From the NCBI GenBank assembly GCA_963669175.1, contig OY769902.1:192001-256000 (forward strand): 64,000 nucleotides of DNA, read 5' to 3'. Below are positions 4,298-44,042 of the stretch, one piece after another. Every line of letters starts with the position of its first letter. Positions within the stretch are counted from its first letter, which is position 1. The DNA comes from a bacterium (GTDB lineage Bacteria > Electryoneota > Electryoneia > Electryoneales > Electryoneaceae). Under the pieces are notes generated by a model. That model saw nothing but the letters and a program-made list of their open reading frames with translations, did no database searches and had not been told where the DNA came from. The position numbers and the translations under genes were made by a program.

Positions 4298-6958
4298 ATG
4301 AGTACCTGGTTTGTCCGGAGTATCGGAATTCTGGCCGTTCTGCTTACCTGCACTGCCCTCTTTGCCACGCCCTATATTCCGGAAGAAATCCTTGATCAGC
4401 AGTACGAAGAACGGTTGCAGACTCAGCCTGACGGTCCGCAGGTACCACCGACACCTTTCCCGGAACGATCGCTTTTCGATGAACTGGACGAGTATGAAAA
4501 CGACTGGCTGCAATTGCTTGACTGGCAGATGGGAATGCAAGTATCTGATATCGGAGCCAACTTCGGCGGCCAGCGTGAAGGTGAGCAGGACTGGAACATC
4601 ATCCAGACCGACAACACCCAGGAAGTACTTCGCGATTGGGCACGTTATGGCTTCCTGACCGGAGATACAGCCACGTATTCCGAGTATATCCGGAACGCAT
4701 GGCAGTACTGCGAAGAATGGCCCGCCTGGGAAGAGGAAGGTGGTGGCAATCCAAACTATTACCGTGTGCATAATTCAGGATGGGGCTGTGTCGCGGCGAT
4801 GGAGTATTATCGCGCTTATGGTGACACAACCTGGCTCTGGTATGGCGATGCCTGCGCAGAATACCTGGACACCTACCGACTGACAGTAAATGTTACTACA
4901 ACAGGCACCAACCCTCTTTCAGCCGGTTTTGGCGCTGGCGCATTGTACCTGTACGGCTCATGGCGGGAAAACCAGGACTGGATGGATGCTGCACAGGAAA
5001 TCGCAGAAGATGTGCAGGCCTGGATCGAGTACAATCCTGACCGCTTAAACAATGCGGAATCATGGGCCATGTCCGGCGGAACCGCCATGTGGGGCGTGGT
5101 GACAGCGCTTTATACTGATGACCATGAAGCTGGCGCAGAGTGGATTCCCCAGTACACCGAATACATGGATCTCTATTCCGGGCCGGGAACCTGGAATAAT
5201 AGCTGGACTGTCTGGTATGCCCATGCCTGGAATGCAATTCATCGTGTGCTGGACGATGCGGAAAGCCTGGAGAACGTCATCTGGATAACCGACTGGCTGT
5301 TGTTGCAGGACGAACCGGACGATGATGGCGGCATCCCCGGGACGGAAGATCAATACAACAATGACCAGTCCTGGACCAGCGCCTATCTTGCCTGGTATAC
5401 CCTCGAATTACTGCTGGATGTCAGGCCGGATGCACAGGCATTGAATGTGACACATCCCGGCGTCGACTCGCTGTTAACCGGACAGCCGACCACACTCTAT
5501 GCTACCATCCGTAACGGCGGCATGGAGCCTCTGGATGGTGCACTGGTTTCTGTACAGATCGGTAATTATGCCGGCTTTGCCCTGATGGACCTTCCTCCTC
5601 TCACACATACAACCGCATCACTGACGCCAATGTGGATTCCGGATGAAATCGGTGAAACGGATATCCTGCTGACTGTCACTCATGCCAGCGATACAGTTTC
5701 CTTCAACGACTCGCTGGCGATCACCCAGGATGTCTATCCGGCCGCTTTTGTAAATGGGTATATCACATCCGGGGAGGATGAATCCCCCGTACAGGCCACT
5801 GTGCTCCTGTACAACGACCCGGAGATGGGCGGCCTTCACCAGGCAGCCAGAACAGATTCAACAGGTTTGTACAGCATTCGCCTTGCCAACTGCGAAGAAC
5901 ATATTCCCTTTGATCTTGAGGTATATCCGGAGGAAAGCCGGTTCGCAGCACAACAGTCCCTGAATCATACCTCAATGCCTTTAGGGCAGGAACGGGTTGA
6001 TATTGCCCTGGATACAGCGTCTGTGCTGCTGGTTCAGGAGGGTGACGGCAACATTTATGACAGCCCCATGTGTGAAACCCTGTTCTACCTGGGAGAAGCG
6101 TTTCATCCATGGGCGCCCTGGAGCGAACGTGGCTACCCGGATGAAGAAATGCTTTCCTTCCCGGTAACCATCTGGTCATGCGGGACCTATGAAACAGATA
6201 TTCTACCCGGTGAAGCACGTGTCGCTGTAGGGGATTATTTCGATGCCGGTGGAAGTCTACTGCTTCACGGAAGCGGGATACAAAACCTGTGGGGAGGTTT
6301 CTATTTCCTGCGAAACAGCTTCGGGGTTGATGCGGATTCAATGGATATTGGACGAGACGGTCTGAATTACAGGATGACAACAAGTGGTAGCTACGGAATT
6401 CTTGATGCCGGGTTTGCTTCGGTAGAAGGTGAAAGTATCGACGAAACTGTCCCGGTGAACGGTGGCATGGGCGTCATGGAACTGGATTCCTCCGGGATGT
6501 ATACGGCCGTGGCATTTGAATCCGCGGACCACCTGTACCGTACTATCCTCGCCGGTTTCGATGTTGACCGGATGTTTGATTATCATGGGACCGAGCTACC
6601 GGTTGAGCGTTCCACGTTTATAGAAGACGTCCTGACCTGGTTGCGTTGGGAAGTGGGCGTGTTTGATGATGATCCTGATGGGACAACGTCACTGCCTTCA
6701 GCATTTTCACTCAACGCCTATCCGAACCCGTTCAATCCTTCTCTCCAGGTGGAAATCGCATTACCGGAACAGGGTGTCTTGAAGGTTGACGTGTTTGATG
6801 TGCTTGGACGGCTGGTCTGCTCCTGGCATCCGGGGCAACTGCAAGCCGGTAATTATAGTTGGAGTTGGGATGCATCTGCATCGTCCAGTGGTGTATATTT
6901 CATCCGTGCTGCAGCCGGAAGACAGACAGCAACCCAGCGAGTGTTGCTGTTGAGATAA
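4298..6958 (+). CDS. Secreted T9SS-CTD protein with (alpha/alpha)6-barrel-like (GH76-like) domain, CARDB-like and carboxypeptidase-regulatory-like domains
   Basis: Signal peptide after RBS; Trp-rich helical repeats; C-terminal AYPNPFNP...DVLGR...SGVYF...LLLR. The hydrolase family is tentative. Confidence 0.75.
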   Translation: MSTWFVRSIGILAVLLTCTALFATPYIPEEILDQQYEERLQTQPDGPQVPPTPFPERSLFDELDEYENDWLQLLDWQMGMQVSDIGANFGGQREGEQDWNIIQTDNTQEVLRDWARYGFLTGDTATYSEYIRNAWQYCEEWPAWEEEGGGNPNYYRVHNSGWGCVAAMEYYRAYGDTTWLWYGDACAEYLDTYRLTVNVTTTGTNPLSAGFGAGALYLYGSWRENQDWMDAAQEIAEDVQAWIEYNPDRLNNAESWAMSGGTAMWGVVTALYTDDHEAGAEWIPQYTEYMDLYSGPGTWNNSWTVWYAHAWNAIHRVLDDAESLENVIWITDWLLLQDEPDDDGGIPGTEDQYNNDQSWTSAYLAWYTLELLLDVRPDAQALNVTHPGVDSLLTGQPTTLYATIRNGGMEPLDGALVSVQIGNYAGFALMDLPPLTHTTASLTPMWIPDEIGETDILLTVTHASDTVSFNDSLAITQDVYPAAFVNGYITSGEDESPVQATVLLYNDPEMGGLHQAARTDSTGLYSIRLANCEEHIPFDLEVYPEESRFAAQQSLNHTSMPLGQERVDIALDTASVLLVQEGDGNIYDSPMCETLFYLGEAFHPWAPWSERGYPDEEMLSFPVTIWSCGTYETDILPGEARVAVGDYFDAGGSLLLHGSGIQNLWGGFYFLRNSFGVDADSMDIGRDGLNYRMTTSGSYGILDAGFASVEGESIDETVPVNGGMGVMELDSSGMYTAVAFESADHLYRTILAGFDVDRMFDYHGTELPVERSTFIEDVLTWLRWEVGVFDDDPDGTTSLPSAFSLNAYPNPFNPSLQVEIALPEQGVLKVDVFDVLGRLVCSWHPGQLQAGNYSWSWDASASSSGVYFIRAAAGRQTATQRVLLLR

Positions 6959-6973
6959 ACGGGTGGAGGTCGG

Positions 6974-8626
6974 ATGACCTGGTTACCCTGGACGATATGT
7001 GTACTGTTAGCCATTGGTGTCGCTGTTGTATGGTTTATACAGCAACGGAAAATAAAGGCTCTTGAAGCGACCAGGGCGGAACTGGACCATGAGCTCCGTA
7101 TCCAGTCTGCCCACACGGAACAGATGGCCTGGCTCCGCGCGGTTGTCGAACAGATGGCCGAAGGGGTCATCGTTACCGATGGCGAGGGCTGCGTCGAATA
7201 CAGCAATGTCGGACTTGAACGGCTTGTCACTCCTTCACGTGAAGAGATCTGGGGCAAGTTCTTCCTCGAGGTATTCTCACCACGGCGACGTCGCGCGCTG
7301 GTTGAAGAGATGATGGGGACAGTGCGTGACGGCCAACCCTGGCGTGGACGTTTCCCGCATACCCGCCCTGATGGTGAAGCGATTGAGCTGGAAGCTTCCG
7401 TTATCCCGATTAAAAACGACTCCGGCAAAATCCTGCATTACCTGACTATCCTGTTTGACCTGACACATGAATCTCCGATGGGCGAACAGATGCGTCGCAG
7501 TCGAAGCCTTGAAGCGGCTGGTGTGGTAGCGACCGAGCTTGTACCATCGCTCAACAACGAGCTTTTCACCATGCTGGGACAGGCAGATGTGGCGCTGGCA
7601 CGTCTGGACGAGGAACACCCGGCGCGCAAACCGCAGGAATTGATCCTCGAGGCAGGACAACGTGCGCGTGACCTGGTGCGCCAGGTTGTCGCCTTCAGCC
7701 GTGAAGCGGAAGCGGAACGTGCTCCGATGGTTTTCCAGGATGTGGTGGAACAGACTCTGCGTATCCTGCTGAATGGTCTTCCGGACGCCATCGACTTGCA
7801 GAGTGACCTTGCAGCAACAAACCTGCAGGTAAAAACCTATCCAGCCCAGATCCACCAGTTGTTGTCCAACCTGTTTGCCAATTCCCAGGCTGCGTTGAAG
7901 AAAACCGGCGGCACTATCACGGTGCGGCTGAGACGTGTGCTATTGGAACAGCGAAGGTGCGAACTGGGATTGCGACCGGGTGACTATCTCTGTCTTACAG
8001 TTGAGGATAATGGTCCGGGCATCAGCGAAAAAGAACTGCTGAATGCGTTCGATCCCCTTTATGGCAGTGGGAATAAACGCAACAATCATGGCGGCATGGG
8101 TTTGACTGTCGTGAAGGGAATTGTCGAAAGCCACCGCGGGGGCATGGAGATTCAACCGCTTCCGGACAAAGGCACGGCGGTCCACCTGTATTTCCCGATC
8201 CTCCCCACAGGCGCTGTCAGCCAGGAAACAGAGGAGCCGCCGGAAGAAAGGCGCGGCCACGAACGTATCCTGGTGGTCGATGATGAGACCGCCGTGATGC
8301 AGGTGATCTGCGAAATGCTGCATAAGGGCGGTTACCAGACGGACGGTTTCATGGACAGCCAGCAGGCGCTCGCCAGCTTCCGTGAACGCCCGCGACATTA
8401 TGACATGATCATCACTGACTATATGATGCGACCACTTGATGGCGCTGCGTTCAGCCGTGAAGCGCTGGCTATTCGTTCCACTGTGCCTATCCTGATGATC
8501 ACAGCGTTCGGCCAGAACATCCGTAAGGATGAAATGACGACTATGGGGGTCAAGAAGGTACTGATGAAACCAGTTTTAACAGAGGATTTACTTGACGCGG
8601 TCGGCGGAATTTTGTCTGGGAATTGA
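6974..8626 (+). CDS. Membrane-anchored PAS hybrid sensor kinase (PAS-HisKA-HATPase-REC) lacking the phospho-His
   Basis: N-terminal TM, PAS, N/G1/G2 boxes (NLFANS, EDNGPG, GMGL), receiver VDDE...TD...KP; the H-box reads ELVPSLNN instead of GIAHDFNN. Confidence 0.88.
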   Translation: MTWLPWTICVLLAIGVAVVWFIQQRKIKALEATRAELDHELRIQSAHTEQMAWLRAVVEQMAEGVIVTDGEGCVEYSNVGLERLVTPSREEIWGKFFLEVFSPRRRRALVEEMMGTVRDGQPWRGRFPHTRPDGEAIELEASVIPIKNDSGKILHYLTILFDLTHESPMGEQMRRSRSLEAAGVVATELVPSLNNELFTMLGQADVALARLDEEHPARKPQELILEAGQRARDLVRQVVAFSREAEAERAPMVFQDVVEQTLRILLNGLPDAIDLQSDLAATNLQVKTYPAQIHQLLSNLFANSQAALKKTGGTITVRLRRVLLEQRRCELGLRPGDYLCLTVEDNGPGISEKELLNAFDPLYGSGNKRNNHGGMGLTVVKGIVESHRGGMEIQPLPDKGTAVHLYFPILPTGAVSQETEEPPEERRGHERILVVDDETAVMQVICEMLHKGGYQTDGFMDSQQALASFRERPRHYDMIITDYMMRPLDGAAFSREALAIRSTVPILMITAFGQNIRKDEMTTMGVKKVLMKPVLTEDLLDAVGGILSGN

Positions 8627-8643
8627 TACCCGGCAATTTACTA

Positions 8644-8706
8644 TTGGCCCCGCCGGCTTGAAACAAGCTGAAGCGAAGCGGAAGCGGTTGCCCTGCGGGG
8701 TTTATT
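8644..8706 (+). repeat. GCGAAGC-loop palindromic element
   Basis: ttggccccgccggcttgaaacaagctgaagcgaagcggaagcggttgccctgcggggtttatt; homologous copy at 54569-54632. Confidence 0.75.
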
Positions 8707-8928
8707 ATAAATGAGATTAAGAAGTTAATCCTCATTATCTGTACATCGTTTCCAGCCATCCCGACTTGCAAATACCGGCAACAAACATGCATCACTCTCG
8801 TTTATAGCCATTCCAGTTAGTAATCCACATTCATCACCAGCAAGTCGGCCATGTATTCAATCACATGTTTCAGCTTATATTACAATAAAAAGCGACCCAT
8901 GACTATGTATCATGAGCCGCTATTTTTG

Positions 8929-9005
8929 TGGTACCCGCGTCGGGATTCGAACCCAAGGCCTTCTGCTCCGGAGGCAGACGCTCTATCCAACTGAGCTACG
9001 CGGGC
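8929..9005 (-). tRNA. tRNA-Arg (CCG)
   Basis: Reverse complement GCCCGCGTAGCTCAGTTGGATAGAGCGTCTGCCTCCGGAGCAGAAGGCCTTGGGTTCGAATCCCGACGCGGGTACCA folds as a cloverleaf; anticodon CCG; encoded CCA. Confidence 0.97.
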
Positions 9006-9248
9006 ATATGTAAAAAATAAAGATAACCTGTTCTTTTCAGCTTTGCAAAAACCGTTTCTTCAGGCGGAGCCAAACCTAACCCTTTCCCATCACAAATGCA
9101 AGTGAATGCGTGTGCGAAAGAGGCAACGGATCAATTCCAAACGGATTACTACGAGGGCGACGTATCTGTTTCCTTTTGGGAATACACGTTTCACGTTGTA
9201 CTATTGAATACTATATTGATTCTGTTCGTAAAGAAATGAGGGGCGCTC

Positions 9249-10250
9249 ATGTTTGGATTGCGAAAGATGTTGGCTGCTGGACTGATTTTGCTTGTTCTGT
9301 CCGGTTCAACCTTTGCCTTCGAAAAGACCGGCACCACGGCAGCAGCGTTCCTTCAAATCCCGGTCGGCGCACGACTTTCCTCCATGAGCAAGGCAGGTGT
9401 AGCGCTACAGGGCGGGCCGGAAATGCTGGCGACCAACCCGGCCGCAGCCTGGTCCGAGAACATCAATTTGAATGTTACTTACCTGGACTGGTTCGCTGGT
9501 CTGCAACATCAGTCCGCCGCCATTACCATCCCCCATTTCAAGGATCTTGTCCTGGGGCTGCATGTGGTCTCGTTTGGTGGAGATGATTTCGAGCAGACTA
9601 CCTTGCAGGAGCAGGAAGGCGCCGGCGTGATGGTCAACTACAGCGATCTCGCAGTTGGTGGGTCTGTCATTGGCCGCCTGACAGACCGTTTCACCGTTGG
9701 CTTGACCGCGAAATACATCCGTCAGCAATTGTTCAACGAGACCGCTTCCACCTTCGCCTTTGATGTCGGCACCCATTTAACAACCGACCTGCGTGGCTTC
9801 TCCATCGGTATGGCTATGACCAATCTCGGTGGAGAAATGCAGTTATCCGGACGCGACCTGTATCTTGAAGACCCCGCAGGTTCACAATACGAGACCAGCA
9901 AATGGCCGCTACCTCTGAGCTTTCAGACCGGCATAGGTTGGAGGTTGCTGGGGCAGGACTGGGCATTTAAGCAGAACAATACGTATGGGCTTTCTGTTGC
10001 CGCAGACGCCCGTCACCTGAATGAAGGCACCACGACAGTCTGCTTCGGACTGGAAGGCGACTATCAGCGTTTCCTGTTCCTCCGCTCCGGGTATGAAATC
10101 GGCCATGACACCAATGATTTTACTTTTGGCGCCGGTGTTCGAGTGGTGCTATACAATGTGGAAGTGCTGGCGGACCTGGCCCTGGCCGAAATGGGCGATT
10201 TGGGGCAGGTGCAGTGGGTGGGCCTGACGATTGGTCAACGTGCACGATAA
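9249..10250 (+). CDS. PorV/PorQ family outer-membrane protein (T9SS shuttle-like)
   Basis: Signal peptide then GTTAAAFLQIPVGARLSSM...NPA, typical of PorV/FadL-like barrels; GLTAKYI, AFDVG, LRSGY. Confidence 0.85.
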   Translation: MFGLRKMLAAGLILLVLSGSTFAFEKTGTTAAAFLQIPVGARLSSMSKAGVALQGGPEMLATNPAAAWSENINLNVTYLDWFAGLQHQSAAITIPHFKDLVLGLHVVSFGGDDFEQTTLQEQEGAGVMVNYSDLAVGGSVIGRLTDRFTVGLTAKYIRQQLFNETASTFAFDVGTHLTTDLRGFSIGMAMTNLGGEMQLSGRDLYLEDPAGSQYETSKWPLPLSFQTGIGWRLLGQDWAFKQNNTYGLSVAADARHLNEGTTTVCFGLEGDYQRFLFLRSGYEIGHDTNDFTFGAGVRVVLYNVEVLADLALAEMGDLGQVQWVGLTIGQRAR

Positions 10251-10279
10251 CGGGACTTTTTCCAGGACAGGAGGCGCAG

Positions 10280-12424: not shown

Positions 12425-12443
12425 AGGACAAGCGCCTCTTATT

Positions 12444-28869: not shown

Positions 28870-31800
28870 ATGAAGCGCTTTTTGTGCACGTTTTTACTCG
28901 TAAGCCTGCTTGCCTGCTCTGCTTTCTCGGCACAGCTTGCTGAACAGACCGCAAACAATCTGGACGCGATTAAAGTAGAACAGCGTCAATTGCGGGATGA
29001 TGGCGCAACTCTGGTTCTTGGCATTGACGAGCCGACCTGGTCAATTGCCGGATCAGAAAACAACCCGCTTGAAGTTGTTGAATTTGCACTGAGTGGTTTG
29101 CTCGGTGTCGAAGGAAACCCGGCTGTGCCGGTAACGGGTGCGATGTTCCGTATTCCCGCGCGCAGTGGCGTTGTTGTTGAAGTAATCGAAACCGAATATA
29201 CTACCTATACAGATGTTGATTATGCCGCGTTCTACGGTTCCGGTGAGTTGGACGAATTAGGTCCGCCGCAGGAAATCATAGACCAGTGGTATCCCGGGAC
29301 TCTCGCTGAAGCTGGCGAACCTGCAATCTTCGGAGATTTCCGCGTTTCCAACCTCTTGACTTACCCGATCCAGGTCAACACTGCCCGTCGTGAAGTGCGC
29401 GTTTACAACCGCATTACTGTTGACATTCGTTACGAAGGCGTGGATGAGACCAACGCCCTCGAGCATTGGCCGACACATATCAGTGAGGCACGTTTGCCCT
29501 TCTATCGTCAGTTCATGGACTGGGACGACGAGGAATTGGATGAGTACGTGCTGTATCGTGGCAATGTCGTTGTCGTCATGCAGGATGATGGTGCGTTATG
29601 GACATTGCTTGAACCCTGGCTGGAGTGGAAGCGTCAAAAGGGGTGGACTTTTGAGTTTCTTACGGACAGCGATGTAAACTGGAGCGCAAGTTCTATCCGG
29701 AGCGCACTCCAGGACATGTGGGACGACGCGGAAATCAAGTACGACTATATCGCCATTATCGGTGACGACCAGGGTTCCTGGCCGGTTCCGGCAGGTTCAG
29801 GCGGTTCCGGCACCAGCCACGGCGACCACCTCTATTCCTGCGTAGCAGGTAATGACAACCTTGCCGACGTCGGCCTGGGGCGTATTTCAGTGGAAAACAA
29901 TACGCACCTGACTGCCTACGAATACAAGGTGTTCAACTACGAAAAAGAACCGTACATGGAAGAGACGGACTGGTATCTGCGTGGCGCAGTGAACCGGTCA
30001 GACAACCATGCCGGTATTTCCAAGATTATCATGTTGCGTTGGTGGCGTAATATCATGTTGGGGCAGCTTGGCTTTACCCAGGTTGATACATCCTGGGGCA
30101 TTGGAAACAACATAGCCCGCAATGCGATTAACAACGGCGTCATTTTCTACGGTGCTCGTGGCTACATCAGCACCGGCCTGCAATGCGGTGATATCAACAG
30201 TCTGACCAACGACTACAAGACACCGATGGTCATTGATGTTACGTGTTACACGGGCAACTGGTCCGGTGGTGACGGCATCAACGAATGCTACATGCGCGCC
30301 GGTACAGCAGCCGTACCTCGTGGCGGTATTGGCGGCATGTCCATGGCAACCTCCGCTACACGTCCTGACTTCAACCACGTCCTGTCCGGCGCTGCCGGCT
30401 GGGCCTTGTTGCGTTTGCAGATGCCACACATGGGTGACATGATGCTGGCAGCCAAGATTAACGGCTGGAAGAACTACCATGGCCATGACGATGGCAACCT
30501 GAACAGCTTCAATCAGTGGTTCAACCAGATGGGTGACCCGACTGTTCTTCTGTACACAGGTCTTCCCCAGGAGATGGATGCAGACGTTGAAACAGAAATT
30601 GAAGTCGGCAACAACAGCTATGCGGTGACAGTCACGGATGATGAAGGTCCAGTCGAAGGCGCTTGGGTAACCTTCTACAAGGTTGATGATGACGAAGAAG
30701 TCATCGCCACCAAGGTGACAGATGAAAATGGTGAAGTTATTCTGGAAATCCCGGTCCGTTATGCCGGCGACGCGACTTTGACAGTTACGTGTCAGCATTA
30801 TATCCCGGAAATCATTGACGTTGAAGTAAATAATCCGGACGCACGTGTGGGTTATGTCGATGTCACCTATCTTGATAGTGGTGCAAGCGGTACTGATGGC
30901 GATGGCGATGGTATCCCGGAAGCCGGTGAAACTGTCGGTCTGATGATTACTGCCAAGAACTTTGGTACCGGGACTGAAACCGGAGTATCCATTACGGGTT
31001 CGGTTGATGATGAATGGATTAGTGATGTATCCGGTGAAGCTACGATCAATTCACTTCCCAGTGGTGGCCAGCAACTCGCTTCTGGTGTTGTCCTGATAGA
31101 GATCGAGTCCAATGCACAGAATGACTGGATCGTCAACCTGAACCTGGATATTGAATCGGATGATGGTGGTTGGAGTGATGTTCTCCAGATGACTATCGGC
31201 GCGCCTGATTTCGCCCTGGTCGATGCCGCTGTTTCAGGCACGTTGAATCCCGGTGACACACGCAACATTGACATTGATATCATGAATGTCGGCGCTGATG
31301 CATTCAGCGGTGGCACGGGCACACTGATCAGCCGTGATCCCTACGTGCATGTCATCAACGAATCCGATACCTACAACGGTATCGCAGTCAACGGTTCCGG
31401 TAGTGGCACCTTCTCGATTCAAGCCCATGAAAATGCACTGCCAGGATACAGTACGACTATTAAGCTGGCGATAGATGGCACTAATGGCACCACAGATACC
31501 GTTATGGTGCCGGTAACTGTCGGCAACCGCGTCTCTACCGATCCCGCAGGGCCGGATCGTTACGGCTACTTCGCTTTTGACAATACCGATACAGCCTACG
31601 AAGATTATGTCCCAACCTACGACTGGGTTGAGATCAATCCCGATGTAAACGGCAATGATTACGACGGCACTTCGTTCAACCTGAGCGATCCTTCTGAAAA
31701 TTCTGATGAAGGAACATGGGTTGAGCTACCCTTTACCATTCAGTACTACGGTCACGAGTTCGATACTATTACCGTCTGCACCAACGGTTTCATCGCCATG

Positions 31801-33900
31801 AGCGATCAGTCAACAGTCGCCAGTAACCGTAACTGGACCATTCCGGCGCCGATCGGACCGAACTTCATGATCGCCCCTTACTGGGATGAACTCCGGACAA
31901 CAAACAATTCTGACATCCTGTACTACCACGATCAGGCGAATGGCCGCTTCATCGTGGAATGGTACGAGGTTACACATGGCACCGGATCGCCCTGTACCTT
32001 CCAGGTTATCTTCTACAGCCAGGAAGCGCGTCCAACATGGACCGGTGACAACGATATCCTGTTCCAGTACAACGAGATGTACCATTACGGCGGCAGCGCG
32101 ATGTCCTACGATGTACCTTACTGGACAACCGGCATTGAAAACGGTGATCAGACAGACGGCATCCTGATCGCTTATTGGAACGACTATGCTCCAGGTGCGG
32201 CAACCATTGCAGAAGGTTCCGCCATCCTGTTTACCACCAACATCCCGCAGATCGTTGGGCATGTCCGTGGCCAGGTAACCAGCCTTGCTTCCGGCAATCC
32301 TATTGCCGGCGCGGAAGTTCATACCCCCGACTACCTGTTCGAAGCTGTTACAGATGTGAACGGTAACTACTTCATCGAAAACTTCGTAATCGGTGACTGG
32401 GTGCTGGATGTGCTTGCTGATTGTTACAATGATCAGTACAGCATTGATATCTCGGTTGTTGAAGCCGAAACCCTGACCGTCAACTTACAGATGACTCACC
32501 CGGAATTCGATATTGGTCCGGAGGTTGTTGATGATGAACTGGTTGATGACGACGAGGTTACACATACCCTGACCATTCGGAACCCCGGCGACGGTGTCAT
32601 TTCTTTCTCGACACGCGTTGGTTACCAGGATCCTGAAGAGCGGCCACTGGTGTTTGATTATTCCGGTGTTGTCCAGGATGGCGTAGACATGATCTGGGAG
32701 CCGATGTATTCCATGGCGCTGGAAGATTATGAATCGCACCATCGTGGTATCGCTTTTGATGGCGAGTATTTCTGGGTAAGCGGCTCCAACAACTATGATC
32801 AGGATGGCTACAACCTCCTGTACCAGTATACCTTTGATGGACAATACCTGGCGACTTTCAACCAGCCGGTACCATCGGAAGCCAGAAGCCCACAAGGTTT
32901 CTACGGCCTGCACTGGGACGGTGAATACCTGTACGGTGCGGATGAGAGCATTGTATACAAGATGGAATTCCGTAAGGACCAGAACGAGTGGGAAGTCGTA
33001 GAAACTTACGAATTCCCGGTCAATCCACCTTTCCGTTACCTGACTGTCGACCCCGAAACCAACACATTCTACGTTGGCGATTACGGCACGGAAATTCGTG
33101 TGTGCCACCCCGACAGCGCGGATATCATTGCTGAATTCGGGCAGGATTTCCATCCCCGTGGCGCGGCTTGGGTCGCGGATGATCCTGATGGATACAACCT
33201 GTACATGGTCGGCCGTGTCATGAACGACGATTTCGGCCAGATTGTCAAGGTTGATCCAGACAATGGTAACTACATGGTTATCGCTACTTTCGACAACTCA
33301 TTCGTACCGGCCGGCGCATGTATTACCAATGCGTGGAACCCCCAGGTCTGGTCACTGGTTTCTGTCCTCGATGGTGTTGACATGGATGGTATTCAGCTCT
33401 GGAATGCCGGCATCAACGAACGATGGATGGAAATCGCTGATCCGGAAGGCTTCATTCCCGGTGGCGATTCGTTGTCATACGATATCACCATGTATGCCAA
33501 CCAGATGTCATCACGCGATTACCAGATGTACATCTACTTCGACCATACAGCGTGTATCGAACACAATGCTTCCGTACATGTGACCCTCTCCATCCCGAAC
33601 GTCATTGGTGAAGAGGAAAACCTGGAAGCCATGCCGTTGGAATGGGCGTTTGACGGTGCGTACCCGAACCCGTTCAACCCCTCAACCAATATCGCCTTCA
33701 CCTTGAAGGAAGCGACATCCGTACAGTTGCGTGTATACAACCTCCTGGGTCAGCAGGTGACCGTCCTGGCCGACCGCACCATGCGCGCCGGACAACACCA
33801 GCTTACGTTCGACGGTCATGATCTGGCCAGCGGCTTGTACTTCATCCGCTTCGATGCAGGGCCGATCCATGAAACACGCAAGGTCGTCCTGATGAAATAA
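28870..33900 (+). CDS. Gingipain-like C25 family protein (propeptide, C25 domain, Ig-like, carboxypeptidase-regulatory-like, propeller-like, T9SS CTD)
   Basis: GGAGG RBS; signal peptide; WKRQKG, IIGD, GRIS, DVTCYTG, MGDP; GPDRYGY domain; C-terminal AYPNPFNP...KVVLMK. Confidence 0.9.
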   Translation: MKRFLCTFLLVSLLACSAFSAQLAEQTANNLDAIKVEQRQLRDDGATLVLGIDEPTWSIAGSENNPLEVVEFALSGLLGVEGNPAVPVTGAMFRIPARSGVVVEVIETEYTTYTDVDYAAFYGSGELDELGPPQEIIDQWYPGTLAEAGEPAIFGDFRVSNLLTYPIQVNTARREVRVYNRITVDIRYEGVDETNALEHWPTHISEARLPFYRQFMDWDDEELDEYVLYRGNVVVVMQDDGALWTLLEPWLEWKRQKGWTFEFLTDSDVNWSASSIRSALQDMWDDAEIKYDYIAIIGDDQGSWPVPAGSGGSGTSHGDHLYSCVAGNDNLADVGLGRISVENNTHLTAYEYKVFNYEKEPYMEETDWYLRGAVNRSDNHAGISKIIMLRWWRNIMLGQLGFTQVDTSWGIGNNIARNAINNGVIFYGARGYISTGLQCGDINSLTNDYKTPMVIDVTCYTGNWSGGDGINECYMRAGTAAVPRGGIGGMSMATSATRPDFNHVLSGAAGWALLRLQMPHMGDMMLAAKINGWKNYHGHDDGNLNSFNQWFNQMGDPTVLLYTGLPQEMDADVETEIEVGNNSYAVTVTDDEGPVEGAWVTFYKVDDDEEVIATKVTDENGEVILEIPVRYAGDATLTVTCQHYIPEIIDVEVNNPDARVGYVDVTYLDSGASGTDGDGDGIPEAGETVGLMITAKNFGTGTETGVSITGSVDDEWISDVSGEATINSLPSGGQQLASGVVLIEIESNAQNDWIVNLNLDIESDDGGWSDVLQMTIGAPDFALVDAAVSGTLNPGDTRNIDIDIMNVGADAFSGGTGTLISRDPYVHVINESDTYNGIAVNGSGSGTFSIQAHENALPGYSTTIKLAIDGTNGTTDTVMVPVTVGNRVSTDPAGPDRYGYFAFDNTDTAYEDYVPTYDWVEINPDVNGNDYDGTSFNLSDPSENSDEGTWVELPFTIQYYGHEFDTITVCTNGFIAMSDQSTVASNRNWTIPAPIGPNFMIAPYWDELRTTNNSDILYYHDQANGRFIVEWYEVTHGTGSPCTFQVIFYSQEARPTWTGDNDILFQYNEMYHYGGSAMSYDVPYWTTGIENGDQTDGILIAYWNDYAPGAATIAEGSAILFTTNIPQIVGHVRGQVTSLASGNPIAGAEVHTPDYLFEAVTDVNGNYFIENFVIGDWVLDVLADCYNDQYSIDISVVEAETLTVNLQMTHPEFDIGPEVVDDELVDDDEVTHTLTIRNPGDGVISFSTRVGYQDPEERPLVFDYSGVVQDGVDMIWEPMYSMALEDYESHHRGIAFDGEYFWVSGSNNYDQDGYNLLYQYTFDGQYLATFNQPVPSEARSPQGFYGLHWDGEYLYGADESIVYKMEFRKDQNEWEVVETYEFPVNPPFRYLTVDPETNTFYVGDYGTEIRVCHPDSADIIAEFGQDFHPRGAAWVADDPDGYNLYMVGRVMNDDFGQIVKVDPDNGNYMVIATFDNSFVPAGACITNAWNPQVWSLVSVLDGVDMDGIQLWNAGINERWMEIADPEGFIPGGDSLSYDITMYANQMSSRDYQMYIYFDHTACIEHNASVHVTLSIPNVIGEEENLEAMPLEWAFDGAYPNPFNPSTNIAFTLKEATSVQLRVYNLLGQQVTVLADRTMRAGQHQLTFDGHDLASGLYFIRFDAGPIHETRKVVLMK

Positions 33901-34990: not shown

Positions 34991-34991
34991 G

Positions 34992-36193: not shown

Positions 36194-36221
36194 AGCAAGA
36201 AATGTGGACTACGGAGTCAAC

Positions 36222-36545: not shown

Positions 36546-36558
36546 TATTCAGGAAGAT

Positions 36559-36580
36559 TTCATGCGTTCTTGTGCATAAA
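36559..36580. promoter_or_regulatory. Second operator copy upstream of the permease
   Basis: Reverse complement TTTATGCACAAGAACGCATGAA matches the 36172 site. Confidence 0.6.
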
Positions 36581-36590
36581 GGTTTTACCG

Positions 36591-37694
36591 ATGATTGTAG
36601 ATTTACTTTTATCCGGATGGCACGCTCTCACTGAGTATTTATCGGCTCATGTCCTGACGTGTCTTATCCCGGCCTTTTTTATTGCCGGGGCGATTGCCGT
36701 TTTTGTCAGCCAGTCGGCAATAATCAAATACTTCGGGCCTGAAGCAAAAAAATGGCTTTCTTACAGTATCGCATCGGTATCAGGTGCGATACTGGCGGTC
36801 TGTTCCTGTACCATCCTGCCGTTGTTTGCGGGAATCCGGCAACGAGGGGCCGGGCTGGGACCGGCGGTAACATTTCTGTATTCCGGCCCTGCAATTAACG
36901 TCTTGGCTATTATCTATTCCGCCCAGTTGCTGGGGTTTGACCTGGGGATAGCGCGTGCGGTTGGAGCAATCGTTTTTTCGGTTCTGATCGGTTTAATTAT
37001 GGCGTTGATTTTCAAAAAACAGGAAGCTGCGCTGTTTCAGGAGAAGGGTGAATGGTCGTTTTCGTCCGACGATGATGACTTACATCCATTCAAACAGCTT
37101 ATCCCCTATTTCGCGGCGATGGTCCTTTTACTCGTAGCAGCTTCTTCCATCGGCCTGGTGATTGGCCTGGCATCCGGTGAAGAGGGCCGAATGACCCTCA
37201 TCATGGATGGCAAACCAATTCCTGCAGCGCTTTCGCTGGTTCTTCTTGCTGCAATTTTGTTCATGGCGTTTCGCTGGTACAACCATGATGAACTGGTCCA
37301 GTGGATGGAAGAAACCTGGAAACTGATGAAGAAGATCATCCCAGTTCTTCTGCTGGGTGTTTTCATTGCCGGAATTATTCGTGTGTTACTGCCTGAGTCC
37401 GTTGTGCAAACTTGGGTAGGCGGAAACAGTATCTGGAACAACCTGTTGGCAAGTGTTTTTGGCGCACTGATGTACTTCTCCACCCTGACAGAAGTACCGA
37501 TTGTACGTGCGCTGATGGACCTCGGCATGGGCAAAGGCCCGGCCCTGACTCTGCTGCTGGCAGGTCCATCGTTGAGTTTACCGAACATGATTGTAATAGG
37601 ACGCGTTATGGGTGTAAAACGAACAGCCGTATACGTTGCCCTGGTGATAGTACTTTCCACTGCTGTGGGAATGCTTTTTGGTCAGTTGAACTGA
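36591..37694 (+). CDS. ArsP/DUF318-family permease
   Basis: HVLTCLIPAFFIAGAI, AVCSCTILPLF, YFSTLTEVP, LLAGPSLSLP. Confidence 0.9.
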   Translation: MIVDLLLSGWHALTEYLSAHVLTCLIPAFFIAGAIAVFVSQSAIIKYFGPEAKKWLSYSIASVSGAILAVCSCTILPLFAGIRQRGAGLGPAVTFLYSGPAINVLAIIYSAQLLGFDLGIARAVGAIVFSVLIGLIMALIFKKQEAALFQEKGEWSFSSDDDDLHPFKQLIPYFAAMVLLLVAASSIGLVIGLASGEEGRMTLIMDGKPIPAALSLVLLAAILFMAFRWYNHDELVQWMEETWKLMKKIIPVLLLGVFIAGIIRVLLPESVVQTWVGGNSIWNNLLASVFGALMYFSTLTEVPIVRALMDLGMGKGPALTLLLAGPSLSLPNMIVIGRVMGVKRTAVYVALVIVLSTAVGMLFGQLN

Positions 37695-37706
37695 AGGAGT
37701 TTGATC

Positions 37707-37949
37707 ATGAAGAAAATAGAAGTACTCGGTATCGGTTGCCCGAACTGTAAAAAGACAGAAGCGATTATCCGAAAAGTCCTGGACAAAAAGGGCTGGAAAG
37801 AAGGAACGGAATTCAGTATTGAGAAAGTTACCGATCCCTCAGACATTGCCGCGCGTGGTGTCCTGGCAACTCCTGGTGTGGTGATTGATGGTGAGATTAT
37901 TTCACGCGGCAAAGTGCCCTCCGCAAGCACAGTTGAAGGCTGGTTCTGA
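37707..37949 (+). CDS. MTH895-family small redox-active disulfide protein
   Basis: IEVLGIGCPNC, GVLATPGVVIDG. Confidence 0.92.
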   Translation: MKKIEVLGIGCPNCKKTEAIIRKVLDKKGWKEGTEFSIEKVTDPSDIAARGVLATPGVVIDGEIISRGKVPSASTVEGWF

Positions 37950-37950
37950 T

Positions 37951-38028
37951 TCATCTCCGGATATGGTTACATTTGCAGTGTTCGAAGATCCGGAAGGCAA
38001 CAAGGTTGGCCTGGTGGAAGACATGTAA
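37951..38028 (+). pseudogene. C-terminal remnant of a VOC/glyoxalase-family gene
   Basis: Translates SSPDMVTFAVFEDPEGNKVGLVEDM*, carrying the VOC FxDPEGNxxxL signature; N-terminal part missing. Confidence 0.7.
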
Positions 38029-38053
38029 AATAGCGGAATATTACTATTCGCCA

Positions 38054-38297
38054 GAAAATCGGGACTGCTACTCTTTTCTGCTGGAGACATTTTCTGAACA
38101 CAGGGTTATGACGAGTTGACCAGATGAATACTGGCCTTCATAGCGTAAATAAGTAGCAGAAAAGGTAGCTGTACCAGGATTTTCGGCGGATCTCGAACAA
38201 CATGCTTGCGAAAAATCCGGTACAGCTACCTTTCGGAAACTCTTGATTCAAAATCCTGATTTGATAACAATGAAAAGTAGCAGTCCCATTTTTCGCC
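38054..38297. repeat. Four-palindrome element, subfamily 2
   Basis: gaaaatcgggactgctac...gaaaaggtagctgt...ggtacagctacc...gaaaagtagcagtcccatttttcgcc; direct copy at 41605-41843. Confidence 0.85.
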
Positions 38298-38305
38298 GCC
38301 ACTCT

Positions 38306-38346
38306 GTCATCCCGGAAACGCTGTCGTTTAGTGTTATTCGGGATCC
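38306..38346 (+). repeat. GTCATCCCGG-type palindromic element
   Basis: Near-identical to 1068-1108. Confidence 0.8.
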
Positions 38347-38504
38347 ACTACGAATCCGTCTCCGGCTAATAAACTGAAAAAACTAGTATTTCCTTGTTCC
38401 CGGTCATCCTCTATATTGTAAGATTGGAGCTGGGGGTTCCTGCCCGTAAAAATCACATGGAGTATACACTTCGTGTGTGTTTTGATTGCCGGATGGAGGT
38501 GTTT

Positions 38505-41372
38505 ATGAGGGGTGTTGGGGTTGTGTTGTTAGTGCTGGCCATAGTCTGTTCTGCCGGAATGGTTTATACGCTTGGCAGCGAAGTGCCGGGCACGTATAAA
38601 AATCAGGTAGGCATACAGCATTTGGCAAAAGAAATGCAAATCATGTCCTATCATGTGAAAGGCAAGCAGGGCCATCGCAAGCATCATGAATGGTTGTTAT
38701 TGCGTAACCCGGAAACCGGACGCATCCCACGTGCGATTCGTTCACGCGAGCTCCAGTTTGCCCAGTCGTTGCCTGTAGCCGGACAATCCACTGCCAAAGC
38801 AAACGCCCGAACAGTCAGCACCCAGAATTGGACACCTCGCGGCCCGTGGAATGTGGGCGGACGCACCCGTGCCCTGCAATTGGACGTTTCCAACCCGGAC
38901 CGTGTTCTGGCCGGTGGCGCCAGTGGGGGATTGTGGGTAAGCGAGGATGGTGGCGCCACCTGGACACGTACCTCTTCCATGGCCGCTACTCCCAGCGCGA
39001 CCTGCCTGGCCCAGGATATTCGTGAAGGACACACCGACACCTGGTATTACGGGACCGGTGAATATTACGGCAGCGGCACCCACTCCATGAACGGAGAATG
39101 GTGGCATTTCTGGGGTGAAGGCATTTTCAAGTCAGAAGATGGTGGTGAATCGTGGAATCGTCTCGAATCCACCTCCAGCGACTCGGCAACCTTCACATCT
39201 CCTTTTGATGTGGTTTTCCGCATTATTACCAACCATACCAACGAAGACCAGGATGAAGTCCTCGCAGCGTTATACGGCTGCATTCAGCGCAGTGTGGATG
39301 GCGGCGAGACCTGGGAAACGGTGGTGGGCAGCTTTAATCCTGGGCCGGACGGACAGCTCTGGGGTAACATGGCCTGGACTGATATTGATATCGGCCCCAA
39401 CGGCACCATGTACGCCACGGTTGCCAACAGCCAGACAGGACGTGGCATCTGGCGTTCCACCGATGGCGTCACCTGGGAGAACATTCTTCCGCCAAACTTC
39501 CCCACAGCGTACCAGCGAATTGTGCTGGATGTTTCACCCCAAAGTGACAGCCTGGTTTATTTTCTCGGGGTCACCCCGGGATTTGGGTTTACTGAAGGAA
39601 GCGACGGCGGCATTAGTTTGTTCAAGCTTGAGGTCACTGTTGTGGGTGATATCTGGACCGATTTGTCTCAGAACCTGCCCAACATGAGCGATGTCTACCC
39701 GAATGGTTCGGGGTCCAGATTTACGACACAGGGCGGCTACGACATGCTGGTTAACGTCCACCCGGACGATCCCACAGCTATCTTTGTGGGCGGCAGCAAC
39801 CTCTTCCGTAGCGATGATGGCTTCGAATCCGATGATTCTACATACTGGATCGCCGGGTACAATCCGACCTGGACGAATATCTATGATCCCGGATCCATGG
39901 TGTATCCCGGTAATCACCCGGATGTTCACAAGATGGTATTCGACCCACGTAATTCCGGGACCATGTATCTTTCCAGTGACGGTGGCGTATCGCGTACCGA
40001 TGAATGCCTTTTGCAACCAGGTGTGAATGACTATATGACCTGGACACAGGCTGATGGATACCTGACGACACAATTCTACTGGGTTGCAGTCAATCCACTG
40101 GAAGATAACAACCACGAGATCAGTGGCGGCATGCAGGACAACAGCACCTGGCTTTCCTTTGACAATGATGTCGAAGCTCTTTGGACCATCATTGGCCCGG
40201 GTGACGGCATGGCTTGCGCGATTGGCGCTGCGGAACAACCTGACTGGACATCCTATTTTTCATCCATGCAGTATGGAAACGCCATCGTCCGTGTTACCAT
40301 GGACAATGAGGACCATAACTTGCAGGGAATTTCAATCGTCAATCCACCCAATGCCAATTTCGGTTTATGGATCACACCTTACCATCTTGATCCCTACGAT
40401 TGGAAATCGTTGTACGTTGCGGACAGTCGTTACATCTGGGTTAATGAAGATATTACGGGCAATACAACCTGGCGCATCATGCCGAACTTCAGCATCAACA
40501 CCGGCAACATCAGCGCCTTTGATGTGAGTTATGAACCTGCGCATGTGGCCTACATTGCGGTCAGTCCCTCATCCGGAAGTACCGCACGTCCAACGATCTA
40601 CCATGTTGACAATATCCTGTCCACCGAGCCGGTGATAACCCCCAGCGAAACTGACATCTTCCCTCGCGGCGCCTGGTGTCATTCCATCGCGATTGACCCG
40701 GCTGATGCGGACCGTGCCCTGGTCACCTTCACCAACTACGGTATCCAGTCCCTGTTTTACACCTCGGACGGCGGCGCAACCTGGACCCATGTCAGCGGTA
40801 ATCTGGAAGAGAACGAGGATGGCAGCGGGGATGGCCCGGCGGTGTACTGGGTTGAGATTACACGCTACCAGGGAACCCGTCCCCTCTTCCTGGCAGGCAC
40901 AAGTGTAGGCCTGTATTCCAGTGAGCGCCTGAACGGTTCGGAAACTGTGTGGGTACAGGAAGGCGCGGAGACGATTGGTCACATGATGGTGAGTTCGATG
41001 GATATTCGCCAGAGTGATGGCTATATCGGGATTGGCACGCATGGCGGTGGCACCTATACCGCCGAGCTGTTCCTGGATAGTCCGGAAGAAGCTATCGCAG
41101 AGATGCCTGCGGAATTCGCAATTGAACAGGCCTATCCCAATCCGTTCAACAGTACGGTACGCTTGACGGTTGCGCTTCCGCGCAATGCCAAGGCAACCCT
41201 GACCATTCATGACCTGCTGGGCAGGAAGGTCGCCACGCTCGCCAGTGAGGAACTCACGGCGGGACGACATGCGTTTACCTGGAACGCCGAGAACCATGCG
41301 TCAGGCAACTACTTCGCTACCCTGGAAGCAGAGGGGCAGGTTTCAACGGTACGGTTGTCACTGGTGAAATAG
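38505..41372 (+). CDS. Secreted BNR/Asp-box (VPS10-like) beta-propeller protein with T9SS CTD
   Basis: GPWNVGGRTRA, repeated SxDGGxTW boxes, HPDVH, GGMQDN, GTHGGG; C-terminal AYPNPFN...LSLVK. Confidence 0.88.
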   Translation: MRGVGVVLLVLAIVCSAGMVYTLGSEVPGTYKNQVGIQHLAKEMQIMSYHVKGKQGHRKHHEWLLLRNPETGRIPRAIRSRELQFAQSLPVAGQSTAKANARTVSTQNWTPRGPWNVGGRTRALQLDVSNPDRVLAGGASGGLWVSEDGGATWTRTSSMAATPSATCLAQDIREGHTDTWYYGTGEYYGSGTHSMNGEWWHFWGEGIFKSEDGGESWNRLESTSSDSATFTSPFDVVFRIITNHTNEDQDEVLAALYGCIQRSVDGGETWETVVGSFNPGPDGQLWGNMAWTDIDIGPNGTMYATVANSQTGRGIWRSTDGVTWENILPPNFPTAYQRIVLDVSPQSDSLVYFLGVTPGFGFTEGSDGGISLFKLEVTVVGDIWTDLSQNLPNMSDVYPNGSGSRFTTQGGYDMLVNVHPDDPTAIFVGGSNLFRSDDGFESDDSTYWIAGYNPTWTNIYDPGSMVYPGNHPDVHKMVFDPRNSGTMYLSSDGGVSRTDECLLQPGVNDYMTWTQADGYLTTQFYWVAVNPLEDNNHEISGGMQDNSTWLSFDNDVEALWTIIGPGDGMACAIGAAEQPDWTSYFSSMQYGNAIVRVTMDNEDHNLQGISIVNPPNANFGLWITPYHLDPYDWKSLYVADSRYIWVNEDITGNTTWRIMPNFSINTGNISAFDVSYEPAHVAYIAVSPSSGSTARPTIYHVDNILSTEPVITPSETDIFPRGAWCHSIAIDPADADRALVTFTNYGIQSLFYTSDGGATWTHVSGNLEENEDGSGDGPAVYWVEITRYQGTRPLFLAGTSVGLYSSERLNGSETVWVQEGAETIGHMMVSSMDIRQSDGYIGIGTHGGGTYTAELFLDSPEEAIAEMPAEFAIEQAYPNPFNSTVRLTVALPRNAKATLTIHDLLGRKVATLASEELTAGRHAFTWNAENHASGNYFATLEAEGQVSTVRLSLVK

Positions 41373-41604
41373 TCTCAGTGTGACAGCGTTATCAGTATCA
41401 CAGTTTATTGTGAGGTAAAGAACTGTAGTTAGATATTGACGTTGATAGTTCAGTTTGACAATACGCTTACCCTTATCCCCGAAAGTACACTCATGTTGCT
41501 TTCGGGGATTTTTCCTCCCTGTTTTATATTGATCATCAGTGTTTTGTCGATACTCTGTCCACCGAAGGTGGGCCACGTGAATAGCTACACAATCAGATTC
41601 AATG

Positions 41605-41843
41605 GAAAATCGGGACTGCTACACTTTTCTGCCAGAGACGTTACCTGAATACAGGAAAAACTGGTTGAACAGGGAATCCTGGTCTTCAAGATAAAAACTG
41701 CAGAAAAGGTAGCTGTCCCTGGATTTTCCTGTTGATCTCGTATGATTACAGGCGAAAAATTTGGTACAGTCACCTTTTCATCACCCCGGGTTAGGCTGTT
41801 TTGCCTTTGCGAACATGAAAAGGTGACAGTCCCATTTTTCGCC
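41605..41843. repeat. Four-palindrome element, subfamily 2
   Basis: Direct, diverged copy of 38054-38297. Confidence 0.85.
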
Positions 41844-41957
41844 ACACTGCTTGCTTTCCTTTCTGACAATTGATCTTAAATCTACCTGGAACCTTGCTTC
41901 GACAGGCGGTTCCGCCATACGTTTATACAGTCAGGAGCCGAACGGGAGGGAAGTGTG

Positions 41958-44042
41958 ATGAAACGATGTGTCTTGTTTGTTCTGTTTGTGTGTATGATTC
42001 TACTTGCCTCGATGCTTTACGCCGAGGTGTTATCACCGGTCGCCCCGGCGTCGATCAGTTATCCCTGTATCGGGGATGCCGAAGTTGACGTGCCGGACAA
42101 CATTCCTCCTTTCCTGCCCGCCGACAACGAACTGGATATGATGGGCGATACGATTATCGTAGGCTATACCTATTGGGAATCACAGCACAACGGCACCATC
42201 GGACACATGATCGGCTGGGACAATGATTCGGAAACAGCATCCATGATCTGGACCTGCCTGGAAAGCGGCGCGGAAGCGTCAACCCGCCATGTCCGTTTTA
42301 ATCGAATCGACTTTTCCGGCGGAACACCTTCTGTAGAAGTAGCTTCCGGATCTATTGTTGACGCCAACGAACGTGCCGGCTACGCCACTCTCCCTTTCCA
42401 TGACGGCATTGCATTGCCAGTCTACCATTACCGTGGCGGCAACCAGGAAACGTATCACCCGGTCTGTGCGGCTGAATGGACCGTGTTTCCCGGCGTGTTT
42501 AACGAAACAATCATGCCTCAGTACGAAGACCTCATCTGGTGGTGGCCACACGGCGCCTATGCGGAATACAACGATGAGCATATCCTGCATATGGTCGCTA
42601 CGGAATGGCGCGAGGATAATGCCGGCCTGCAGCAGGTGATCTATGTCCGCAACCAGTTTGATACCGAAAACGAGAGAATTATTGCTGGCGACTGGGAAAC
42701 TGTCACCGAATATGGCATGAACATCTCCGCTGATATTGGAGCGTCAAACGATGGTGCGCGTGTCGCTATCGCAGCAACCGTATCCCGTGACTACCTCTAT
42801 CACCCGGAAGATGATCCCACGCAGTACAACAACGATCTCTGGTTGTGGATCAGCGAGGACGGCGGCGAAACCTGGGACTGGGAAAACCCGATTGATATCA
42901 CTGATTTTGCCATGCCAAACCCGGACATGTTCCCGGACTCACTGGCGGCAGATACAGACACCCTGCGCGCTTACACAGATTGTGATATCTATTTCGATTA
43001 TGATGATGTGCTGCATGTCGCTTTTACCGTGAGTGGATTTTTCTATTACGAAGGCACAATCACTTACACCTCCATGATTTATCATTGGGACGAGAAAAGC
43101 GGATACTGCACCGTGATTGCCGATGGCAGGTTCTGGAATTATACGATGCCTGGAGCATGGCATCGTGTCGCGAACAGGCCAAGCATGGTACAGGATCAGG
43201 ATAGCCGTATCCTGTATTGTGTTTATGAACAGCTCGGAATGCCGGGCGAATTCACGGACAATGGCGATAACACTGTTACACCGTGGGATGTATCCGATGA
43301 TGGCTTTGGCTGTTTTGAGGTCATGATTTCCGCAAGCCCAGGCTATGAGTATTATTACAACACCATACCGGGAAAGATGTGGACCGCTCCGGTAAACATT
43401 ACAGATTCCCGTGCCGCTGAAGGCGAATACCCCAACGGCATGCAGGCGGGACACTGCCAAAGCGAACGTGAACCCAGTGTCGCTCTGAACACCGAAGGCG
43501 ACTACCTCCACATCTTCTACATTATGGACACCGATGCCGGGTTTGTTATCCAGGAAGAAGGCGAGTTCACCAATAATCCTGCTGTCTATCATCGTGTATC
43601 CAAAGAATCCATCATGGACCAGATTTATGCAAATGGGGAATGGGTGGAGAATTATCCTTTACACACGGATAGTACGGGGTTCTATCTGGACTAACATGAT
43701 TGGGTGTGGGACAGCGAATTGTGGGATGATCCATTCTACCGTCTCGGGGTTATTGAAGATCAGCCGGAACTGCAACCCGCACAATTCCACCTGGCTCAAA
43801 ATCATCCCAACCCTTTCAACCCCACCACACAGCTCCAGTACACGCTTGATGTGCAGGGGGTTGTCAAGCTGACCGTATACGACTTGCTGGGACGAGAAGT
43901 GCAGGTGTTGAACAACCGTGTCATGCAGGCGGGAACACATGCGGTCCTGTTTGATGCATCCGAACTTCCCAGCGGTGTCTATTTCGTGAAACTATCCAGT
44001 GGCAACGCTTCACAGGTGATCAAGATGACGCTGGTAAAATAG
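41958..44042 (+). pseudogene. Secreted T9SS-CTD protein interrupted by an in-frame TAA at 43692-43694
   Basis: ORFs 41955-43694 and 43704-44042 share a frame; reads GFYLD*HDWVWDSEL...NHPNPFNP...MTLVK; one Asp-box (SEDGGETW). Confidence 0.8.

Follow-up and report, generated by a model that had tools for sequence, protein, structure and literature searches.

The gingipains of Porphyromonas gingivalis belong to family C25, which is described as Arg- or Lys-specific, and the two autoprocessing sites of one of them, RgpB, are the Arg126 loop and the Arg229 linker (PMC4357240). The S1 pocket of RgpB has its base in Thr209 and its lid in Trp284, with Asp163 as the anchor (PMC9559808). Here we analyze a 64,000-nucleotide stretch of the genome of an uncultured Electryoneota bacterium (the window; contig OY769902.1 of assembly GCA_963669175.1, positions 192,001 to 256,000), in which the word ELD, mostly as ELDE, recurs where the leaders and propeptides of type IX secretion system (T9SS) proteins meet the folded domains. 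A first-pass annotation of the window had proposed that a caspase-like, Asp-specific protease matures the secretome by recognizing xELD. The enrichment in the secretome, the junction positions, a likely Asp at P1 and a basic S1 pocket all speak for this proposal, while the caspase identity and a one-to-one swap of the motif with the S1 residues are not supported.

Frequency of ELDE in the type IX secretome

The genome (G000) is a single contig (C1) of 5.45 Mb and is 95.9% complete. Our own open reading frame (ORF) calls gave 331 ORFs with a C-terminal T9SS sorting domain (CTD), 322 of them at least 200 amino acids (aa) long. The protein classes (CTD, signal peptide without CTD, and cytoplasmic) were set by an in-house hydrophobicity rule, and expected counts over whole proteins were obtained by local shuffling in 30-residue blocks. 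The most enriched four-residue word in the N-terminal regions of the 322 CTD proteins is ELDE, which is present in 43 proteins against 1.08 expected. Counted over their whole length, 86 of these proteins (about a quarter) contain it, 158 times in all against 9.8 expected, compared with 15 against 7.4 in signal-peptide proteins without a CTD (n = 622) and 28 against 19.8 in cytoplasmic proteins (n = 1058). The genome-wide comparison of signal-peptide and CTD proteins with cytoplasmic proteins, suggested in the first-pass annotation as a check, thus reveals a positional enrichment of ELD in the secretome. Rearranged words show no excess in CTD proteins (DLE[ED], 18 against 19.2; EDL[ED], 20 against 19.4), and the fold excess is 16 to 20 for ELDE, 2.3 for ELDD and 1.5 to 5.8 for the nearest variants. 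The complete motif of this genome is ELDE, and the residue preceding it is mostly D, N, G or S.

The ELD[ED] sites number 184, of which about 20 are expected by chance, and are written in 39 codon spellings. According to their downstream sequence they fall into 50 unrelated groups, 19 of them with at least two members and the largest with 42. Because of this variety of codon spellings and of downstream groups, the signal acts at the protein level and is not a product of paralogy.

Some further loci of the genome deserve mention on their own. Two adjacent exported proteins without a CTD (C1:371258 and 373905) carry ELDE in repeated contexts and are possibly cargo with another sorting signal. 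A CTD protein of 11,593 aa (C1:4826820-4861601) has seven ELD[ED] sites. Five near-identical stand-alone CTD fragments (C1:4741323, 491301, 1367264, 166852 and 1367649) share their upstream DNA and have no protein body, resembling remnants of a repeated element or of recombination.

Junction sites and the P1 residue

Three motif genes in a single window are little proof, and the genome-wide data carry the case. The features of the window are as follows.

4298..6958, + strand: CTD protein 1, with signal peptide, Pro-rich leader, probable alpha/alpha-toroid domain and CTD (PF18962; 113 homologues)
4481..4492, + strand: ELDE at the leader/domain junction of protein 1
28870..33900, + strand: protein 2, a C25 (gingipain-fold) protein of the Arg209 clade described below, with propeptide, catalytic-type domain, accessory domains and CTD (PF08126, PF01364, PF18962; RgpB match)
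29245..29256, + strand: ELDE in a propeptide loop matching the inhibitory loop (Arg126) of RgpB (profile alignment to 4ief_A)
29533..29544, + strand: ELDE in the propeptide/catalytic-domain linker, the one that holds Arg229 in RgpB
30022..30024, + strand: Lys at the RgpB Asp163 position (S1 charge anchor)
30157..30159, + strand: Arg at the RgpB Thr209 position (S1 base; role of Thr209 from PMC9559808)
30163..30165, + strand: Tyr at the catalytic His211 position
30244..30246, + strand: Cys at the catalytic Cys244 position
41955..44042, + strand: CTD protein 3, interrupted in the assembly by TAA 43692-43694, with the CTD in frame behind it, to 44042
42129..42137, + strand: leader/domain junction of protein 3, with ELD and no Glu behind it

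The words that had been annotated as DELDE (4478-4492), GELDE (29242-29256), EELDE (29530-29544) and NELDM (42126-42140) are all in frame on the + strand. Three T9SS-CTD proteins had been counted; the cargo features, an N-terminal signal peptide (judged in window proteins by hydrophobicity only) and PF18962, are present in proteins 1 and 2, but the third ORF, 41955-43694, has no CTD in the assembly, since its CTD lies behind the TAA. Two sequencing runs of one sample, possibly the origin of the assembly, differ at this position, the contig of X1 reading TAA and that of X2 reading GAA, so an intact allele of protein 3 exists, and the TAA is either a population variant or an assembly error. Full-length homologues of protein 3 have about 650-750 aa and carry PF18962. 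Both BNR-propeller CTD proteins had been described as free of ELD, which is correct for 38394-41372, but 52112-54385 has one internal ELDG, off any junction. The ELDE of protein 1 is retained by most of its closest homologues, and distant ones carry RRD, LTD, xLD or no equivalent; its structural look-alikes (Atlas, 0.84-0.87) are GH127/GH88-like, which is a lead only. The closest named homologues of protein 2 are from Candidatus Electryonea clarkiae.

To the window also belong an intergenic repeat-like region (44100-44700), whose short ORF-like translations recur in similar form beside other CTD genes (likewise L440 and L441), and a 1625-aa protein with 15 PKD domains and no CTD (54974-59851, - strand), which adjoins a LysM/FecR/Ig protein at 60873-63266. 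Candidate parts of the T9SS itself are a PorV-like outer-membrane protein in the window (9249-10250, + strand; match below the Pfam cut-off) and, elsewhere in the genome, a PorU-like His-Cys C25 at C1:1039270, which was named from its architecture.

The position of the motif was compared with Pfam domain boundaries in 20 genes that were hand-picked for an early site, 16 of which have Pfam matches. The first catalytic or module match begins 2-31 residues past the Asp in nine of the 20 (three S8, and one each of C1, M14, C10, M1, arylsulfotransferase and Cleaved_Adhesin); in the other seven genes with matches it lies further in. One subtilase could be aligned with mature subtilisin BPN': its Trp189 matches residue 6, so that Asp185 comes to lie within one residue of the mature start. 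In a profile of 18 C25 paralogues, one ELDE aligns with the inhibitory loop of RgpB and the other falls in the Arg229 linker. ELDE stands at the pro-mature junction in the zymogen families C25, S8, C1, M14, C10 and M1, and one P1-type signature is shared by pro-mature and inter-domain junctions, as expected of gingipain-type cargo maturation.

Which residue would be P1 can be approached by comparing junction words, here written with a slash at the putative cut. By family, each represented by one or a few genomes, they are ELD[ED] in f1, LD[ED] in f5 and f6, LD and RD in f7, RD in f3 and AD[ED]L in f2. The RgpB-like orthologues of the phylum all keep the loop Arg, and their junction reads LD/Y in three of G005, R/Y in three of G043/G058 and in P0111, and K/Y in P0112. 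In the family of protein 3, of which 35 of 39 homologues were parsed, 31 of the 35 have an Asp 2-4 residues ahead of the domain start; 13 homologues have ELDE and 5 have ELD without the Glu. Judged from these alignments, Asp is the constant letter across the phylum and its neighbours vary. Asp is likely P1, as had been annotated, because LD/Y replaces R/Y or K/Y in the RgpB-like orthologues and because of this constancy. The junctions of GGPD modules from other phyla (140 loci, 150 proteins) carry mixed words (LG, RG, LD, RD, EG and PT), with no single P1 or register.

The Arg209 clade of C25 proteins

The genome has 23 PF01364 matches, one of them partial. Among its 22 C25-like ORFs, the His-Cys dyad is kept only by the PorU-like protein and C1:3259808, and His211 is absent in 20. 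In the other C25s, that of the window included, His211 is replaced by an aromatic or some other residue, Thr209 mostly by Arg, and Asp163 by Lys, Ser or Thr; Cys244 is mostly retained. Because Thr209 and Asp163 form the base and the anchor of the pocket and both are changed, the S1 pocket appears to have been rebuilt toward an acidic P1; the loss of Asp163 and the gain of a basic residue accord with an Asp-specific C25.

The window protein at 28870-33900 matches PF01364 and PF08126, as well as the mature and pro chains of RgpB, and so has the C25 fold and propeptide. Of the His211-Cys244 dyad it keeps the Cys, while the His is replaced by Tyr; it has Lys at 163 and Arg at 209, and ELDE at both sites where a gingipain has Arg or Lys. 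It is of gingipain fold but, because of the Tyr, not a canonical gingipain. It also lacks the L5 His, the second conserved His of its clade, and sits in an expanded, drifting branch; for these reasons it is more likely a substrate or a degenerate copy than the cutter, as far as its residues indicate.

We gathered 236 C25 domains in a biased sample centred on this phylum. Of these, 169 combine Arg209 and Cys244 with no His211, and 117 of the 169 have a His in the L5 loop, compared with 1 of 37 His211/Cys244 domains without Arg209. The Arg209/no-His211 domains form one clade in the tree, and its low-copy core has Cys244 in 46 of 46 members and the L5 His in 43 of 46. The AlphaFold model of one paralogue, C1:1562673 (predicted local distance difference test, pLDDT, 84.6), has RgpB as its best structural match (Foldseek E 1.2e-26 to 1cvr; also 4ief), and a helix begins right behind the L5 His, consistent with an ungapped alignment of that His to Trp284. 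From this alignment and the model we place the L5 His in the RgpB Trp284 register, which we take to be the position of the caspase L3 Arg. No conserved gene neighbourhood of the two low-copy C25 types was seen in 8 regions of 5 genomes, inspected by eye without family scans.

Six paralogues of the Arg209 clade stand in tandem at C1:651071-681682, their active sites drifting, and the copy at 666357 ends without a CTD. C25s with Arg209 and an intact dyad (His211 and Cys244) occur as L043 (G013), L090 (G005), P0098 and P0119, the loop of L043 having Asp in the Arg126 register. An expanded C25 branch of G013 (L057-L064, L067) has lost the catalytic Cys and keeps the junction word RDD.

Activity of a His-less C25 is plausible by analogy with caspase-1, since its His237 mutants keep 9-15% of their output in cells and since in simulation the His only hydrogen-bonds, with no proton transfer, a role proposed for the whole of clan CD (PMC10088814).

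The distribution of motif and enzyme across relatives points to the same clade. In two genomes of one genus, G009 and G051 (94% and 92% complete), PorU is the only C25. For G009, 62 matches (some incomplete) yielded 48 CTD proteins, which contain ELD[ED] twice against 1.5 expected; at 15 homologous junctions of this genome aligned by eye no ELD was found, one of them having SLD nearby. G051 has none against 0.3 expected in 17 CTD proteins, a sample too small and too truncated to judge. G019 has PorU and three His211-less C25s, with ELD[ED] 11 times against 2.4 in 45 of its 65 CTD proteins, several of them at orthologous junctions. An orthologue of the C1:1905938 type is present in 14 of the 16 genomes of the family and missing only in G009 and G051. 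That one genus lacks both the motif and the clade, as read from the genome sequences, points to the Arg209 clade as the reader; PorU is excluded because it is present in the motif-less G009. Whole-genome counts of the DNA word are also lowest in G051 and G009 among the 16 (20.0 and 20.3 per Mb; others 23.6-53.6), but they are noisy, track GC content and cargo number, and were given little weight. The exchange of the motif together with the S1 residues of C25 among sister lineages, which the first-pass annotation had predicted, is not tight or one-to-one, since Arg-Asp junctions elsewhere are found in proteins of this same Arg209 clade.

Other candidates for the cutter were also considered. The annotation had spoken of a caspase-like enzyme; no window protein matches PF00656, and the two C14 matches of the genome lack a CTD. 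Legumain (C13) and clostripain (C11) have no match in the 95.9% complete genome. The HExxHxxGxxH signature of an AspN-like metzincin is absent from the 322 CTD proteins and occurs once in a protein without CTD. A single universal orthologue as reader is rejected too, the C1:1905938-type query finding nothing in 18 of 61 genomes of the phylum.

Competing explanations and comparison with known systems

Based on the enrichment, the junction position, the replacement of Arg229 by Asp, the pocket changes and the joint loss in one genus, all of them sequence evidence, ELD(E) may well be a lineage-specific tag at the ends of leaders and linkers of type IX cargo that is cut after Asp by a C25 of the Arg209 clade. 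That the cut falls after Asp, by whichever enzyme, is probable; that an Arg209 C25 makes it is a finely balanced proposition. Cargo would be exported and anchored via PorU, and the reader would be a low-copy conserved member of the clade, here C1:1905938, 1697724, 1562673 or 75438. On the cell surface, it would hold the P1 Asp with Arg209, the lid His (position of Trp284) and the Asn that replaces Met288, and then cut, so that leaders and propeptides are removed and polyproteins split into modules, as by the Arg/Lys gingipains in Porphyromonas. Many expanded paralogues, the window protein included, would be substrates or degenerate copies. In a wider form, on which we are inclined to be somewhat sceptical, the His-less clade would be the master maturase of the whole secretome, with Cys244, Arg209 and the lid His cutting after Asp and with P2 (Leu, Arg, Ala or Thr) drifting by lineage as a private code. 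Bolder still, the His-less acyl-enzyme might be resolved by an amine, ligating cargo as PorU does.

Several observations weigh against the favoured tag and its proposed reader. Loss of His211 normally means a dead enzyme: the simulated barrier of caspase-1 H237A rises by 6.8 kcal/mol (PMC10088814), and the combination of His-to-Tyr and Cys-to-Ser marks the pseudo-orthocaspases, which are presumed dead (PMC6426788), though there the Cys is lost as well. The pattern of Arg209 and L5 His is found in a single clade and counts as a single event, and the clade also stands beside Arg-type (Arg-Asp) junctions in other phyla. Only one genus provides the loss control, and its cargo is smaller in number and of a different make-up. 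In G019 (96% complete, 170 contigs) a His211-type enzyme could be unassembled. The C1:1905938-type query matches 43 of 61 phylum genomes at the cut-off, and the 18 without a match include G046 and G011, whose C25s, other members of the clade, still carry LD[ED]. The residues upstream are more disorder-prone than those downstream at 68% of 147 ELDE sites, compared with 51% of 1738 LD not followed by E, but this test is weak because other acidic Leu words reach 64% of 85.

The same cut after Asp could be made by another enzyme, either the His211-type C25 C1:3259808 or a non-C25 protease, with the Arg209 C25s all being dead cargo. The restriction of the dyad to PorU and 3259808 and the usual consequence of His211 loss favour this, and any co-lost protease fits the loss control equally well. 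On the other hand, the 3259808 type is not among the C25 matches of G019, G035 and G003 and itself carries a loop Arg, PorU is retained in G009, and this genome offers no C13 or C11 match, no C14 with a CTD and no metzincin signature in CTD proteins, the cross-genome survey covering C25 alone; we consider another enzyme unlikely. Alternatively, ELDE may be a docking motif that is never cut, a short acidic helix with an N-cap, to which dead C25 domains or some other receptor would bind and so hold or gate surface cargo. All four positions matter, as the 20-fold excess against 1.5- to 5.8-fold for the nearest variants indicates, and in a few proteins ELDE directly follows the signal peptide, leaving nothing to remove. 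A docking role stays alive because the model of C1:1562673 predicts the junction ELDE in a short helix (residues 167-173) and not in an extended strand, and because the preceding D, N, G or S are typical helix N-cap residues. It has difficulty accounting for the Asp that exactly replaces Arg229 or Lys in RgpB-like orthologues and that lies at the mature start of subtilisin, for the dispensable Glu in the protein 3 family and for the Cys244 of all 46 core-clade members, and we regard it as quite unlikely.

The cut could also lie in a different register, behind the last Glu (ELDE/) or ahead of the Asp, which would suit the profile alignment to 4ief_A, where Arg126 of RgpB aligns with the last Glu of the motif and not with the Asp, beside a gap. 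Among 13 parsed orthologues of the 1905938 type, loop position G+4 holds Asp in 5 and Glu in 5, which argues in the same direction, as does the lack of a single register at GGPD-module junctions across phyla. The contrast of LD/Y with R/Y in orthologues, the missing Glu after ELD in protein 3 and in 5 of its 35 homologues, and the constancy of Asp across families argue otherwise and make such a register improbable. Finally, acidic composition of secreted proteins and paralogue expansion might inflate ELD by chance; the word does occur in cytoplasmic proteins of the window, as the annotation had cautioned, and one module family supplies 42 of the 184 sites, and some 20 sites would be expected by chance alone. 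The 16-fold excess over local shuffles with flat rearranged controls, the 50 unrelated downstream groups and the loss at homologous sites in G009 leave this explanation almost no credibility.

If the favoured reading is true, Asp specificity has arisen independently in clan CD, as a second route to caspase-like specificity, and the clade could put to a natural test the idea that the His of clan CD does not shuttle protons. The mature N-termini of hundreds of uncharacterised secreted Electryoneota proteins would become predictable, and a protease specific for four residues could serve as a tag-removal tool. A further caution is that the catalytic His is missing from most of the "gingipains" counted in such genomes. 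Our literature search, which mostly did not extend to subscription journals, turned up no paper on this motif, nor on a C25 that is Asp-specific or His-less.

Compared with known systems, the one described here shares with the gingipains RgpB, RgpA and Kgp (MEROPS C25) the fold, the T9SS CTD and a propeptide motif at both autoprocessing regions, the Arg126 loop and the Arg229 linker (PMC4357240, PMC5445135), as well as sites at the junctions of modular cargo, a Cleaved_Adhesin module among them. Unlike theirs, its tag is centred on Asp and not on Arg or Lys and is common to dozens of unrelated cargo families, and its C25s have lost Asp163, have Arg at 209 and lack His211 in 20 of 22 ORFs. With caspases (C14A) and legumain (C13) it has in common the clan CD fold and a predicted P1 Asp held by basic residues; it differs in belonging to another family, in being extracellular, in drawing its Arg from position 209 and in having no His-Cys dyad, and where caspases need xExD, the motif has Leu at P2 and Glu at P3 and P1'. 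PorU, the C25 sortase of the T9SS, has the same fold and works in trans on many surface cargo proteins, but it cuts at the CTD with loose specificity (PMC5445135), and it keeps His-Cys and is present in the motif-less G009. As in pseudo-orthocaspases (His-to-Tyr, Cys-to-Ser), an aromatic residue takes the place of the dyad His of clan CD; those proteins have lost the Cys (PMC6426788), whereas here all 46 core members retain it and the S1 pocket has been remodelled toward basic residues. The secretome-wide junction code is real, and it resembles gingipain-dependent cargo maturation while being neither a caspase system nor a canonical gingipain system.

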